The position numbers and the translations under genes are program-made. From assembly GCA_002505405.1 (NCBI GenBank), contig DAVD01000037.1:187-64186 (forward strand): a stretch of 64,000 bases of DNA. The letters run 5' to 3'. The notes under the pieces were generated by a model. That model was not told the DNA's origin, did no database searches, and worked only from the letters and a program-made list of their open reading frames with translations. The stretch is from Candidatus Poseidonia alphae (lineage in GTDB: Archaea; Thermoplasmatota; Poseidoniia; Poseidoniales; Poseidoniaceae). Shown here piece after piece: positions 9,577-12,666 of the stretch. Within the stretch, counting starts at the first letter, position 1. Every line of letters starts with the position of its first letter.

Positions 9577-9813
9577 CTAAACCCACTTTGACATCAGACT
9601 GTTGAGGGACTCAACGATCGCTGCGATGTCAACGGATTCACCATTTTCCTGAGCGAGTTGCAACCGATTACGAACGGCTTCTATGGTTTCTCCGGATGGC
9701 GCAGAACCACTGATTTCTTCGATGACTTCGGCGATGCTTTTTCCTCGACCTTCCTCAATAGCAAGAAGCGCTTTTACAAATTCTTCTTCGTCTTTTGGTC
9801 GCCGAGCACTCAT
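9577..9813 (-). CDS. Small acidic, probably all-helical protein (78 aa), third gene of the E1-like/JAB cassette
   Basis: Its ATG (9813..9811) overlaps the JAB stop (9812..9810) as ATGA. Sequence MSARRPKDEEEFVKALLAIEEGRGK...SLMSKWV. No recognised domain and no C-terminal Gly-Gly. Confidence 0.5.
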   Translation of the reverse strand: MSARRPKDEEEFVKALLAIEEGRGKSIAEVIEEISGSAPSGETIEAVRNRLQLAQENGESVDIAAIVESLNSLMSKWV

Positions 9814-10361
9814 GCATCCACCTCCACCGCAATGTTGTTGCTTTGGTACCATGAATACCAGGGAGTTGGTTCTTCATTGGTCCAATTTGAAAGAGGACCT
9901 TCGGCGGAAATGAAGGGAGCCTTCAGTTGCTTATTGAAGGTAGAATTGCTTGTGAACTTAGGGCCAGGTTCACCCAATACCATGGCGGTTTCCAAAATCA
10001 TGGTGCCCAGAGAAAGGCTGTTGGTGTCGGTCGTGCTCCAATATGCGGCGAAATCAGGATGGGTGTGAACCCACAATTTGAACGGACTTTTCGCCCCAAC
10101 TGGTGGTTGAAGGGTGACTTGTCCAGCCGTTCCCCAATCGATGTATATGTTGTTTTCAGCGTCGATGAGAACGGAGGTTTCCAAGCCTGCAAGAACAGAC
10201 AAGATGTACACTCCGTCCCAACGACTGTGAGCAGCTAAGGTCTCTTGAGCCAAGAGAAGTTGAGAGTTTTCGACCTGTCGTTCACTCGCCGCGAGGCAGG
10301 CTTCATCCCATGTCGCTTCATCCAAACCCGTTTGGGCGAATTCCGGAAGTTCGACCATCAT
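9810..10361 (-). CDS. JAMM/JAB (MPN+) metalloprotease-like protein, 183 aa
   Basis: Exact H-x-H-x7-S-x2-D motif HTHPDFAAYWSTTD (nt 10067..10026). ATG 10361..10359 overlaps the E1-like stop 10360..10358 (ATGA read directly). The ORF-track extension to 10454 lies inside the E1-like gene. Confidence 0.75.
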   Translation of the reverse strand: MMVELPEFAQTGLDEATWDEACLAASERQVENSQLLLAQETLAAHSRWDGVYILSVLAGLETSVLIDAENNIYIDWGTAGQVTLQPPVGAKSPFKLWVHTHPDFAAYWSTTDTNSLSLGTMILETAMVLGEPGPKFTSNSTFNKQLKAPFISAEGPLSNWTNEEPTPWYSWYQSNNIAVEVDA

Positions 10362-10987
10362 GCCTTCACCTCCGGGAAAGAAAGAGCACCGTAAGTGATG
10401 CTGCCCATGGTTTGGGTGGGCGATGGTCTTCCTCGCAATTCTTGAATGGCCCATTGAGAACCAATGGCGGCAGCAACTGCAAATCCGAATTCAAGGTTCC
10501 CAGATTCCAATGCACCATCGACCTGGCAACTCTTTGGTTCGTGGTCCGGTGTCATTTCTTGGACCAATCCTCGTGAACTTTGGGATGTGAGAGCTACCCA
10601 TCCGTCTCCAGAACAACGCAAATCAATCCAAGGAATGTCAAGACTGTGGACCAAGCGACGAGGTTCTGGCCTGTCAACACAAACCACGACCAAATCATAA
10701 CCTTCGAGTTGCTTGGACTGCCGCAAATTCTCCGGAAGTCCGACAACGCTCACATGCTCTGAATCCAGGCGCTGAGCCAACTGAGTGACTTTATGATGAC
10801 CTACATCGGTCAAACTGTAGCGTTGATGGCCGAGGTTGGTGGGTTCTACAGTGTCTGCATCCATGACGGTCACAGAGCACGGAAGAGCGACTCTGATTAG
10901 GGCCGGAATCAAGTTTTCCAAGAGGCTTGCACCAATGCCACCGGCTCCGACAACAAGCAGCTTTTTGTCTGGGGTTTCGAGGTTCAT
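10358..10987 (-). CDS. Minimal E1-like (ThiF/MoeB/UBA family) adenylation-domain protein, 209 aa
   Basis: Gly loop LLVVGAGGIGAS (about 10931-10948). DADTVEPTNLGHQRY matches the D-x-D-x-V-x3-NL-x-RQ signature (10817-10861). C-terminal SCQVDGA...FAVAAAIGSQWAIQELRG resembles the ThiF C-terminal helix. No CxxC pairs, rhodanese or E2-like domain. Confidence 0.8.
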   Translation of the reverse strand: MNLETPDKKLLVVGAGGIGASLLENLIPALIRVALPCSVTVMDADTVEPTNLGHQRYSLTDVGHHKVTQLAQRLDSEHVSVVGLPENLRQSKQLEGYDLVVVCVDRPEPRRLVHSLDIPWIDLRCSGDGWVALTSQSSRGLVQEMTPDHEPKSCQVDGALESGNLEFGFAVAAAIGSQWAIQELRGRPSPTQTMGSITYGALSFPEVKA

Positions 10988-11020: not shown

Positions 11021-11239
11021 TCACGAATCGGATAACAGACGTTCCAATGCTGTGATTTGAACGGGCAGTACAAAGTTCTCCTCCACATATAACCGTCCAG
11101 CCTTTGCGCAACGCTCGCGCAAGGTTCCATCCTCCAGTGAAGTTTTCGCACACTTCGAAGCCCCTCCATCATCTCTTCTGAAAAGCCCAACAGGTTCAAC
11201 GGGCGTCATCGTGCATTGGAAGCCATCTTCACCAACCAT
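11021..11239 (-). pseudogene. Probable C-terminal relic of a GT4 glycosyltransferase (72-codon ORF)
   Basis: VGLFRRDDGGASKCAKTSLEDGTLRERCAKAGRLYVEENF parallels the C-termini of two intact GTs in this window: GGLFNRGDPADLA...GRDRVLGKYT (38937-40205) and GRLMDEGDDW...SKAGREHIQ (11431-12666). An in-frame stop lies just upstream (11267-11269). The whole N-terminal Rossmann half is missing. Confidence 0.45.
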
Positions 11240-11430
11240 TAACGCGAGTACTCCACGGCCATGGCTTCAATTTGAGGGTTTTGACATACTTTGTGTTTGT
11301 TGTCTTGCTTGGTGGACTCATCGGTTTGAATGATGGTGTTTAAATCGTTAATGAAAGAGGAATAAAACCACTGTTGCCAGTTGTGTTGATTTACTCTGGA
11401 TTGAAGAGCATGGTTCAAAACATGTTGTGA

Positions 11431-12666
11431 TTATTCCTCTTCAAAATGCCAAGTGAAGGATTCGAATACTTTTCTTGCCTGCGTTTCAGGCGTTAGATCG
11501 ATTTTTTGAATGTGTTCTCGGCCAGCCTTAGACCATTCCTTTCTGTTTTTATGCCCTTCATCGATTGCTGCAATCCAATCATCTCCTTCATCCATTAAGC
11601 GTCCTGTTTTTCCATCAACAACAGTTTCTCTAAATCCTCCTTGATTCGAAACGATAACTGGGCAATCGACAAAATATGCCTCTGGTGGAGTTAAACCAAA
11701 CGGTTCGTTGATAGCATGACTCACCATTGCCTTAGCGTTTCTCATCAATGCTCTAATGGTCGCTTGTGATACTCTGGGCAGAGCTTTTAATTCGACGTTA
11801 TTTTTTCTAGCGTGCTCCTTGTGTTTTTCATTAACCCCACCGCCGATTTGAACAATTTGTAAATTAGAACTGCCTAGTTTTGTGATGGTTTCCCATAGGC
11901 CTTTCGCAAAAATAGCATGGCCAATGGTGATGACATACTTGTTTTTGATAAGACCAAATTCCTTTTTAACAGACCCCCAGTCTTCGTCTTTGGTTGGTTT
12001 AATCGGCCAAAGATTTGGATTTATACTGGGATAAATAAAGTTAGATTCGACATCATAAACTTGTTTGATCCGGTCGCATGTGTTTTTCGAATTACCACTA
12101 ATCTTCCCTCTCTTGGAAGCGAGTGTTACTAATTTTTCATCGATCTTTCTTTGTTTTGACAACAGGAAATTTGTCAATTTGAGATTTTGTTTGGGTGTTC
12201 CATCGACGTCAAAGTGGAGGTCGTTGCTGTGTAAACCACGGTTTGGTTCATGCATGAGTGTATGAATGGGGATGTTGTTAGGTATCAGTGGAAGGAGTTC
12301 TAATGAGGCCATTCCAGTTGTTATGTTGACTGCATCAATGTTAGAAAACAATGTATTCAAGCCAACTCCTTGTTTTGTTAAAGAAAGCATAGAGTACCAT
12401 TTTTTAGATGCATTTCGAGATGACCTTGCAAATATTTCTGAAAATATTCCGCGCGAATAAGACCAATTACTTACCGGAGAAAAGAGCGGTATGTTCAATT
12501 CATTTGATTTCTCTACGAGTTCTTTATTGGGATGTAATGTTGCAACACTCAAGTCAAAATATTTTGACCAGGCTTCGAGATTATTGATCAAATCTCTTTC
12601 CCCTCCACCGAAGTGCTCAAAAGAGCCTTTCACAAGCAAAAGGCGCTTTCTTTGAAGGTTAGCCAT
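11431..12666 (-). CDS. Glycosyltransferase, GT4-like, low-GC
   Basis: NEPFGLTPPEAYFVDCPVIVSNQGGFRETVVDGKTG (E-x7-E region). N-terminal LLLVKGSFEHFGGGE. Confidence 0.8.
   Translation of the reverse strand: MANLQRKRLLLVKGSFEHFGGGERDLINNLEAWSKYFDLSVATLHPNKELVEKSNELNIPLFSPVSNWSYSRGIFSEIFARSSRNASKKWYSMLSLTKQGVGLNTLFSNIDAVNITTGMASLELLPLIPNNIPIHTLMHEPNRGLHSNDLHFDVDGTPKQNLKLTNFLLSKQRKIDEKLVTLASKRGKISGNSKNTCDRIKQVYDVESNFIYPSINPNLWPIKPTKDEDWGSVKKEFGLIKNKYVITIGHAIFAKGLWETITKLGSSNLQIVQIGGGVNEKHKEHARKNNVELKALPRVSQATIRALMRNAKAMVSHAINEPFGLTPPEAYFVDCPVIVSNQGGFRETVVDGKTGRLMDEGDDWIAAIDEGHKNRKEWSKAGREHIQKIDLTPETQARKVFESFTWHFEEE

Follow-up and report, generated by a model that had tools for sequence, protein, structure and literature searches.

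What do an E1-like enzyme and a JAMM/JAB protease do together when the operon that encodes them holds neither a ubiquitin-like protein (Ubl) for activation nor an E2 to receive it? The question is raised by three minus-strand genes of Candidatus Poseidonia alphae, a member of the Poseidoniaceae (marine group IIa, MGIIa, in the usual nomenclature), that lie in a stretch of 64,000 nucleotides of contig DAVD01000037.1 (assembly GCA_002505405.1, positions 187 to 64,186), referred to here as the window and numbered from its first letter. The first gene (10358..10987) encodes an E1-like adenylating enzyme of the ThiF family of 209 aa, recognised from its open reading frame (ORF) and from Pfam ThiF. 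The second (9810..10361) encodes a JAMM/JAB (MPN+) metalloprotease-like protein of 183 aa, recognised from an invariant motif and an AlphaFold2 (AF2) model, and the third (9577..9813) a small acidic, probably all-helical protein of 78 aa that is conserved 3′ of the JAB gene. An earlier note on this DNA had described the three as being chained by ATGA overlaps, and both overlaps can be read directly in the window, at 10358..10361 (stop of the E1 gene and start of the JAB gene) and at 9810..9813 (stop of the JAB gene and start of the small gene), an arrangement indicative of translational coupling. The reading that we favour, with a probability slightly above one half (about 0.55), is that the trio represents the Poseidoniaceae version, without a Ubl, of a ubiquitin-like activation and processing system specific to Poseidoniales and their viruses, and that its substrate would be supplied in trans.

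The evidence that carries this reading comes from homologous cassettes outside the Poseidoniaceae. The trio had been held to be composed differently from any Ubl system, and this view has to be abandoned, since relatives carry a GG-terminated Ubl gene directly 5′ of the E1 gene (loci L090, L094 and L098). Loci L094 and L098 begin with a small ORF, whose end reads ...RPLVGG-SC or ...PSLQGG-H; next to it stand an E1-JAB fusion and then an 85-86-aa helical protein, after which a TFIIB-like zinc-ribbon protein follows in L098. In L090-L093 the order is two proteins with a Cys-containing domain (p319C, discussed below), a 105-aa ORF ending ...LPGLVGG plus 22 residues, E1 and JAB. Loci L101-L103 contain a p319C-domain protein, E1, JAB and a 79-aa small protein, with HisRS and FtsZ alongside, and L095-L096 contain GT1 (a glycosyltransferase), E1, JAB and a 95-aa protein that is plainly homologous to the 78-aa protein of the window. 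A metagenome scan with the sister JAB clade, annotated with hidden Markov models (HMMs), yielded 80 further loci; named members of this cluster are Candidatus Thalassarchaeum or Thalassarchaeaceae, i.e. marine group IIb (MGIIb). A Ubl gene of 70-80 aa was present in 38 of the 43 MGIIb-type loci with at least 1.3 kb upstream. The E1s of Ubl-bearing cassettes were about 46-49% identical to those of Poseidoniaceae in one comparison. The pairing of E1 with JAB is backed by Rosetta-stone fusions, both by two proteins of approximately 405 aa found among the JAB-profile matches (P0260 and P0268) and by the MGIIb-type loci, in which the two are fused in 42 of 74 and separate in the remaining 32. It had also been foreseen that a canonical GG-terminated Ubl together with an E2 in the operon of close relatives would reduce the trio to a system of a known kind; the first of these was found and does so, but the second, a canonical E2, was not.

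The small GG-terminated gene is well supported as a ubiquitin-like protein by its context, that is by its size, its terminal GG, its adjacency to E1 and the short tail that follows, and the support from its sequence is suggestive. The family (61 ORFs) ends in ...VGTVRIVPGLVGG plus 0-2 residues, with the GG invariant and E1 adjacent. When its profile was compared with PDB sequences the matches were almost only to ubiquitin, the register being kept through the final 40 residues as far as the terminal GG, with E 0.3-1.3 for mono-ubiquitin, the very low values for poly-ubiquitin being sums over repeats. Comparison with reference sequences by hhalign gave the lowest P for ubiquitin (0.004), followed by MoaD and SAMP2 (0.05 each) and ThiS (0.11); the reversed controls lay at 0.33-0.66.

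The E1-like protein was first read as having a GAGGIG loop and as lacking CxxC motifs and a rhodanese domain. Inspection of the sequence bears this out, and the protein passes Pfam ThiF with 63.7 bits over residues 8-191 (PF00899; cut-off 28.1, E 1.8e-17). Conservation was assessed in 154 distinct family members, 80 from MGIIa and 74 relatives, with residue roles assigned by alignment to Cap2, MccB and Uba1 and from established knowledge. Conserved throughout are the Gly loop (G14, G16 and G17), D43, D45, N51, Q55, K66, D105, C125, D128, C154 and Q155, the Gly-rich ATP loop, the ribose-binding Asp (D43), the Lys (K66) and the Mg-binding Asp (D105) all being invariant. G14, G16, G17, D43, D45, N51, H54, Q55, K66, D105 and C154 are equally invariant in the MGIIa proteins that have no Ubl gene beside them and in the Ubl-linked relatives. 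The protein had been said to have no catalytic-Cys domain, and indeed there is none, yet C154, within 'SCQ', is invariant across all 154 members and lies where an active-site Cys would be expected. The canonical active-site Cys that follows the crossover loop is C184 in ThiF and C188 in UbaA. C154 appears to lie in register with the active-site Cys of ThiF, MoeB and UbaA, the HMMER alignment to ThiF stopping at residue 151 of the query (ThiF 177). The Arg finger of the NLxRQ motif is His54 in all cellular members (window ~10826-10828), HMMER-aligned to the Arg of Cap2, MccB and Uba1, and the same position is Tyr in the viral E1s (L185-L267); an Arg finger as such is lacking. Such a replacement appears unusual for E1-like enzymes that are presumably active in adenylation.

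The closest NCBIfam model to this protein is PRTRC_ThiF (TIGR03736; E 4e-18), at 65.6 bits against a cut-off of 144.75 and over the N-terminal half only. PADLOC models of the E1-E2 protein Cap2, from the cyclic oligonucleotide-based antiphage signalling system (CBASS), match residues 6-103 (E 4e-11), again below the family cut-offs; the PRTRC ThiF and Cap2 matches are together confined to residues ~6-115. The NCBIfam models for MoeB, ThiF, UbaA and MoeZ score 18-42 bits against cut-offs of 152-647, the UbaA equivalog NF047750 28.4 bits against 450, and the TcdA model 14.9 bits, also below its cut-off. Membership of PRTRC, Cap2, UbaA, MoeB, ThiF and TcdA was rejected on these scores. The protein thus stands outside the housekeeping MoeB, ThiF, TcdA and UbaA families, as it had been expected to. 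Against PDB sequences the single sequence has Cap2 as its top match (E 3.4e-7), and the family profile has MccB (4.6e-10), followed by Uba1, Uba6, Uba4, Cap2, MoeB, ThiF, TcdA and PaaA, in each case over the Rossmann half. These scores bear on a possible role in sulfur transfer, in which the E1 would activate a ThiS/MoaD/SAMP-like carrier for molybdopterin or tungstopterin, thiamine or tRNA thiolation and the JAB would mature the carrier. An E1, a JAMM protease and a GG-tailed carrier do follow the logic of CysO/Mec+ and QbsE/QbsD, and in relatives a tungsten/molybdopterin-type AFOR gene lies a few genes from the trio. We nevertheless consider this role very improbable: in addition to the low MoeB, ThiF, UbaA and MoeZ scores there is no rhodanese, no CxxC zinc site and no neighbouring sulfurtransferase, the linked Ubl is closer to ubiquitin than to ThiS or MoaD, and the module occurs in viruses with Cys-containing large proteins and a TFIIB-like protein, a setting ill-suited to cofactor synthesis.

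The second gene had been credited with a JAMM motif, and the motif residues (E61...H99-T-H101-x7-S109-x2-D112) were invariant in 35-38 homologues; E61, H99, H101, S109 and D112 are moreover invariant both in MGIIa and in the Ubl-linked groups. The AF2 model, which has a mean predicted confidence (pLDDT) of 92.8, shows three N-terminal helices followed by a minimal JAB core, and together with Foldseek searches it places the protein in the JAB/MPN fold. The matches in PDB were all weak and included Rpn11 and CSN5 (these two being the best, E 4e-3, TM ~0.33), cytidine deaminases, which belong to the same fold class as JAB, and Cap3 (E 0.26). In BFVD the protein matched two uncharacterised viral proteins (E 2e-9 and 3e-8) and viral proteins named JAB, MPN or deubiquitinase (probability 0.95-1.0). 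No significant match was found in Pfam, NCBIfam or PADLOC, the Pfam Prok-JAB model reaching 14.6 bits against a cut-off of 25 over just 22 residues around the motif. The JAB profile retrieved 153 sequences at E <= 0.001 from 1.84 billion representatives, which indicates a small family.

Since the E1 and JAMM residues are equally invariant in MGIIa and in Ubl-linked cassettes, the same chemistry is to be expected in the organism of the window, and since the Ubl gene lies outside the MGIIa operon the substrate would have to come in trans. In such a scheme the JAB would trim the residues that follow the di-glycine of the Ubl precursor, or would strip the Ubl from its targets, and the E1 would use ATP to adenylate the exposed Gly carboxylate. 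The invariant Cys154 might then receive the Ubl as a thioester, from which it could pass to target lysines without a canonical E2, as in archaeal sampylation. In MGIIa another part of the chromosome, or an infecting element, may provide the Ubl. The 78-aa protein would act as a stoichiometric accessory or adaptor subunit of an E1/JAB complex and not as the tag, a role suggested by its coexistence with a Ubl elsewhere.

This last point requires that the small protein be considered as a substrate in its own right, as had been suggested. It was confirmed from the sequence to be acidic, to be 78 aa in length and to end in SKWV rather than GG. Its family conserves an N-terminal R-x-P-K-D-x-E-E, G22 and G24, and N49-R50, and has a variable C-terminus (W-A/V). 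No Pfam, NCBIfam or PDB-sequence relative was found, the PDB profile matches being to designed helical repeat proteins only, which fits its reading as an all-helical protein. Clear homologues stand 3′ of JAB in other lineages (L096, L103 and L187), and a helical protein of 76-86 aa with the same pattern occupies this position in 85 of 95 loci outside the Poseidoniaceae (L090-L184). Were the cassette self-contained, the E1 would adenylate the C-terminus of the 78-aa protein and attach it to targets, and the JAB would reverse the attachment or mature the protein. It is the only small protein encoded in cis and is translationally coupled to the enzymes, its last residue is always small (A or V in MGIIa; C, A, S or T in other cellular loci), and the best single-sequence PDB match of the E1 is Cap2. 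Cap2 and Cap3 demonstrate that E1 and JAB pairs can act on C-termini that do not belong to a beta-grasp fold, namely that of a CD-NTase. We think it unlikely, however, that the 78-aa protein substitutes for a Ubl, because in MGIIb cassettes its homologue stands beside a dedicated GG-terminated Ubl; its C-terminal residues are also poorly conserved, with bulky residues (W, H or N) next to the terminus and no conserved Gly-Gly. A substrate encoded elsewhere, which the earlier note had also entertained, is still the best reading, no Ubl being found in cis in the window or the Poseidoniaceae loci.

The trio itself is a stable possession of the family. A search of a 90%-identity database at E <= 0.001 returned 274 relatives of the E1-like protein; the 120 listed range from 100% down to ~56% identity and are nearly all of 201-246 aa, and the few among them that bear a source name come from metagenome-assembled genomes (MAGs) of Poseidoniales, Poseidoniaceae or Euryarchaeota. 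A scan of one genome per GTDB species gave 117 stretches with relatives, from which 80 loci were retained, all of them titled Poseidoniaceae, Poseidoniales or unclassified euryarchaeal MAGs; together with nine metagenome loci these form a set of 89 Poseidoniaceae loci. Where both gene ends could be read, the 4-nt overlap of E1 with JAB was kept in 85 of 86 loci and that of JAB with the small gene in 81 of 84. Identity to the window proteins across the set is 47-96% for JAB and 36-96% for the small protein. For the second and third genes the program-made ORF list contains longer ORFs, of 214 and 91 aa. The shorter, coupled starts are preferred because homologues conserve them and because strong GGAGGTG(A) motifs stand 4-5 nt upstream. 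These motifs resemble Shine-Dalgarno sequences and may serve as such: GGAGGTGA (10366..10373, minus strand), 4 nt 5′ of the JAB ATG, and GGAGGTG (9819..9825, minus strand), 5 nt 5′ of the ATG of the small gene.

The gene order around the trio is also conserved and runs epimerase, GT1, trio, a convergent FadB-like 3-hydroxyacyl-CoA dehydrogenase/enoyl-CoA hydratase, GT4, HxlR and metallophosphatase. The trio is therefore a syntenic core chromosomal operon of ~80 Poseidoniaceae species genomes. The expectation that the three genes would be found together in related genomes is thus upheld, and the suggestion that they lie at the edge of a variable defence or surface locus is not, the neighbourhood being instead a conserved syntenic backbone. 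A mobile cassette or defence island was ruled out for the same reason.

The glycosyltransferase relic reported upstream of the trio is present at 11030..11254 (minus strand) and is the C-terminal 75 aa of the syntenic GT1 (tblastn with the GT1 of L001, 56% identity over 75 aa), which stands intact directly 5′ of the trio in most Poseidoniaceae; it provides context and is probably outside the module. The adjacency of GT1, in most Poseidoniaceae and in L096, could be taken to mean that the E1 adenylates a carboxylate of a glycan, lipid or nucleoside and that the JAB-fold enzyme is an amidase, the pair being tied to the neighbouring glycosyltransferases. E1-like enzymes can indeed use non-protein carboxylates, as TcdA does with t6A. 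The window, however, retains an intact trio beside a GT1 that has decayed to a relic, it is a Ubl and not a glycosyltransferase that sits 5′ of E1 in MGIIb and viruses, and the TcdA score is low, so that the chance of this being the function is, in our estimation, very small.

Several further observations were made at these loci. A different GT1 of 411 aa lies at 11431-12666 (minus strand) of the window; it is 36% identical to the syntenic GT1 and has a weak 'GT4-conflict' match in Pfam. In some Poseidoniaceae without the syntenic GT1 the E1 is called with a 150-aa N-terminal extension (L007:6001-7083; P0119, 360 aa), which may be a mis-called start or a remnant. Two MAGs each contain two differing copies of the trio (L025 and L060 in CASIAW01; L043 and L071 in XS_MAG49), which are either true paralogues or the product of mixed bins; in CASIAW01 one copy is accompanied by a fourth gene encoding a p319 protein and the other is not.

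A trans-acting Ubl as the substrate of the MGIIa trio has to be set against several points that weigh on the other side. Its supply in trans is an assumption. The earlier report of no Ubl and no recognisable E2 in cis holds for the window and for the ~12-kb neighbourhoods of ~80 Poseidoniaceae species: an ORF scan found no small GG-terminal ORF in the 64-kb window, and a six-frame search of the window and the 89 Poseidoniaceae loci with the Ubl HMM gave nothing below E = 1. A Ubl, or a second complete cassette, may lie elsewhere in the MGIIa chromosome. The identity of the Ubl is itself read from size, position, the GG terminus and a weak similarity of profiles, and no canonical E2 was recognised in the cassettes or in the window. 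With His or Tyr standing where the Arg finger would be, adenylation by the E1 is putative. Finally, C154 probably corresponds to the active-site Cys of ThiF and UbaA by register, no significant alignment spanning the Cys.

The p319C domain was considered as a possible conjugating enzyme (E2). In a sub-clade of 11 of the Poseidoniaceae loci a protein of 313-320 aa that contains it is encoded directly 3′ of the small gene, and a six-frame HMM search found no p319C domain in the window. The product of this fourth coupled gene (for example L063:7430-8389, and 10 other loci) combines a C-x4-C-x2-C-x-W motif in its N-terminal part with the p319C domain in its C-terminal part; the domain, with an invariant Cys246 and N271-D272, is shared with MGIIb and viral proteins. 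In the sister-clade scan 55 of the 80 loci had p319C-domain genes, in most cases a convergent pair of large ones. Around the Cys of the domain, the motif ICIDIL...LPxGD...VLALxND is reminiscent of the active site of UBC proteins, and an alpha-beta(5)-alpha topology is predicted. When the domain was compared by hhalign with UBE2D2, UBC9 and UBE2N the Cys was aligned, with P 0.14-0.38. The AF2 model of a 316-aa p319C protein was poor (pLDDT 46.9, C-terminal domain 66-82), and a Foldseek search with this low-confidence model returned no E2, the best weak matches being frataxin-like. E2-like proteins without the canonical His have been described in comparable bacterial operons (Iyer et al., 2006; PMC1779556). 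These sequence and model comparisons did not reach significance, and p319C is at most a candidate E2 of the wider family.

In MGIIb cassettes and in the viral module E1 and JAB are repeatedly accompanied by a protein whose N-terminal part is a TFIIB-type zinc ribbon (Pfam PF08271, 5e-6; NCBIfam TFIIB, 2e-6), as at L116:6970-8010, L098:2998-3978 and L185:6706-7326. It may be a regulator or a target. Comparison of five partner proteins (JAB, small protein, Ubl, p319C and zinc-ribbon protein) with NCBIfam, Pfam and PADLOC gave this zinc ribbon as the sole match.

The most distant relatives of the JAB are viral. On a Tara contig (L185, G+C content 33%) the small co-directional genes number in the dozens, and a class II ribonucleotide reductase (RNR) and a PD-(D/E)XK protein are encoded as well. 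Consecutive genes of this contig specify a p319C protein (415 aa), a TFIIB-zinc-ribbon protein (206 aa), a ThiF (180 aa), an ORF of 40 aa and a JAB (249 aa). No relatives were found when IMG/VR was scanned with JAB patterns of the MGIIa type, but a scan with an alignment of the viral type gave 327 stretches with relatives, of which 80 loci were kept (L188-L267). In 29 of these 80 the gene order is Ubl, p319C protein, E1, JAB, and 24 more have E1, JAB and p319C, many others being cut by contig ends. The viral Ubls end ...LTPAIVGG plus 0-2 residues and the minimal viral ThiF is of ~180-200 aa. The GenBank phage collection, searched by tblastn with the JABs of the window and of L185 and with the E1 of L090, gave no match. 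Several of the module-bearing IMG/VR contigs are of 88-96 kb, and on one, of 92 kb, the module is accompanied by genes for a class II RNR, for a chaperonin and for a clamp loader of the replication factor C (RFC) type. All three belong to the gene set described for magroviruses, which are viruses of MGII, with RNR and GroEL present in group B (Philosof et al., 2017; PMC5434244). By gene content the module-bearing contigs would appear to be magrovirus-like. ThiF, ubiquitin and JAB genes are unmentioned in the magrovirus and Poseidoniales-virus literature searched, and no description of a ThiF-ubiquitin-JAB system of Poseidoniales or magroviruses was found there.

A second virus-like element (L090-L093 and L268-L270; G+C content 38%) encodes a T7-like single-subunit RNA polymerase, an AAA ATPase, a protein tyrosine phosphatase (PTP) and a metallophosphatase, together with three paralogues of a 135-141-aa family and a Ubl with an unusually long tail of 22 residues after the GG, followed by E1 and JAB. 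Copies of it are found in the bins of a Poseidoniaceae MAG and of a 'Saprospiraceae' MAG, the second of these assignments being probably an error of binning.

These viral sets allow for the possibility that the host trio is directed at the GG-tailed Ubl of a virus, either in defence, by mis-activating or stripping it, or as a host factor that the virus exploits. Such a role would be in keeping with the ordered sets in IMG/VR, with the magrovirus hallmarks of the 92-kb contig (PMC5434244), with the binning in a Poseidoniaceae MAG of an element with a T7-type RNA polymerase that carries the set, and with the absence of a Ubl in cis in the MGIIa hosts. The viruses, on the other hand, encode their own E1 and JAB and therefore need no host enzymes, the host and viral proteins are distant (a JAB profile built from host sequences scores the viral JABs at ~1e-13 to 1e-23), and the genes around the trio form a stable neighbourhood of a housekeeping kind, which is not what a typical defence island looks like. 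Direction of the trio at viruses thus has, in our view, only a slim chance of being correct. A broader conjecture, somewhat less improbable though still doubtful, is that the most abundant planktonic archaea share with their viruses a private Ubl system, made up of a GG-tailed Ubl, a minimal E1 with its His or Tyr finger, a divergent JAB, a helical adaptor and large proteins with an invariant Cys, in which the MGIIa enzymes would act on a tag delivered by a virus in the course of host-virus conflict or would carry out Ubl-independent chemistry with the 78-aa protein. If true, a ubiquitin-like modifier would be a battleground between abundant marine archaea and magrovirus-like viruses. MGIIa in any case provides a natural experiment in which the enzymes are kept under strict constraint without an adjoining tag gene, and through which the role of a minimal E1 and JAB without a linked Ubl or E2 may be approached. 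The His or Tyr in place of the Arg finger is relevant to how E1 enzymes work, and the partner families (the GG-terminated Ubl, the helical protein and the Cys-containing large proteins) match no curated library searched.

Comparison with known systems indicates where the trio belongs. Sampylation in Haloferax volcanii (SAMP1-3, UbaA and HvJAMM1) is similar in being archaeal and in having an E1-like enzyme with a single active-site Cys (here putative), no E2, a Gly-Gly Ubl and a JAMM/MPN+ protease. UbaA, however, has ~270 aa and carries zinc motifs of the CxxC type (its model, NF047750, gives the E1 of the window 28 bits, the cut-off being 450), the SAMP genes are unlinked and SAMP1 and SAMP2 have no tails, and there is no counterpart to the 78-aa protein or p319C, nor the His finger seen here. 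Moreover, the window and the Poseidoniaceae loci have no Ubl, a GG-terminated one being present in relatives only, and the trio is accordingly not assigned to sampylation. CBASS type II (Cap2 and Cap3) shares the E1 sub-type, a JAB isopeptidase partner, the lack of a rhodanese and a substrate that need not be a classic Ubl. It differs in that the fused E2 of Cap2 and the adjacent CD-NTase and effector are absent here, where the E1 is of 209 aa without an E2 and the neighbours are GT1, a FadB-like protein and an epimerase. The similarity is limited to E1 residues ~6-104, the JAB-Cap3 match is weak (Foldseek E 0.26) and the Poseidoniaceae locus is a core operon and not a defence island; the trio again falls outside the system. 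In the CysO-MoeZ-Mec+ and QbsC/D/E systems a carrier has the tail after its GG removed by a JAMM protease before it meets the E1, which may be compared with the 0-2- or 22-residue tails of the relatives' Ubl. Their E1s have a rhodanese and lie in sulfur-metabolism operons, whereas here there is neither rhodanese nor sulfur genes, and low equivalog scores, no CxxC and no extra domain separate the protein from MoeB, ThiF and MoeZ. The PRTRC-system ThiF (TIGR03736), although it is the best NCBIfam match of the window E1, is matched below its cut-off (65.6 bits against 144.75) in the N-terminal half only, with no ParB and no PRTRC A-F nearby and no PRTRC-family match for the partner proteins, which places the trio outside that family. 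MccB, the microcin C7 synthetase and top PDB match of the family profile, is also E1-like and adenylates a peptide C-terminus without an E2; it differs in bearing a peptide-clamp domain at its N-terminus and in lacking a JAB as partner, and the match is limited to the Rossmann half.

There is also a likeness to the bacterial operons of rhodanese-less E1-like and JAB proteins, types 6a-6e, that were described by Iyer, Burroughs and Aravind (2006; PMC1779556), in type 6d of which an E2-like protein with a Cys stands beside 'a largely alpha-helical protein'. These operons have a rhodanese-less E1 fused or adjacent to JAB and a small Ubl with a C-terminal Gly, and type 6d resembles the set of Ubl, E1, JAB, helical protein and p319C. 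They differ in that there is no membership at the level of sequence, in that comparisons of p319C with E2s gave no significant match, and in that the distribution here is archaeal and archaeal-virus-like and not bacterial. Operons of this type later gave rise to Bil and Bub, and Cap2/Cap3 is the best-studied member of the class. The presence of a GG-terminated Ubl in relatives makes the trio more ordinary than was first proposed, and judged by its sequences the system would belong to the broad class of rhodanese-less E1-like and JAB operons and work in the manner of E2-less Ubl systems. Within this class it is distinguished by the very small size of its E1 (180-250 aa), in which His or Tyr serves in place of the Arg finger, by a JAB so divergent that Pfam misses it, a conserved helical partner and linked Cys-domain and TFIIB-like proteins, as well as by a distribution limited to Poseidoniales and virus-like contigs and by the absence of the Ubl from the MGIIa operon. 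Seen in context it is also more interesting than first proposed, since an archaeal order that abounds worldwide has it in common with its viruses, and since it is unmentioned in the literature searched.

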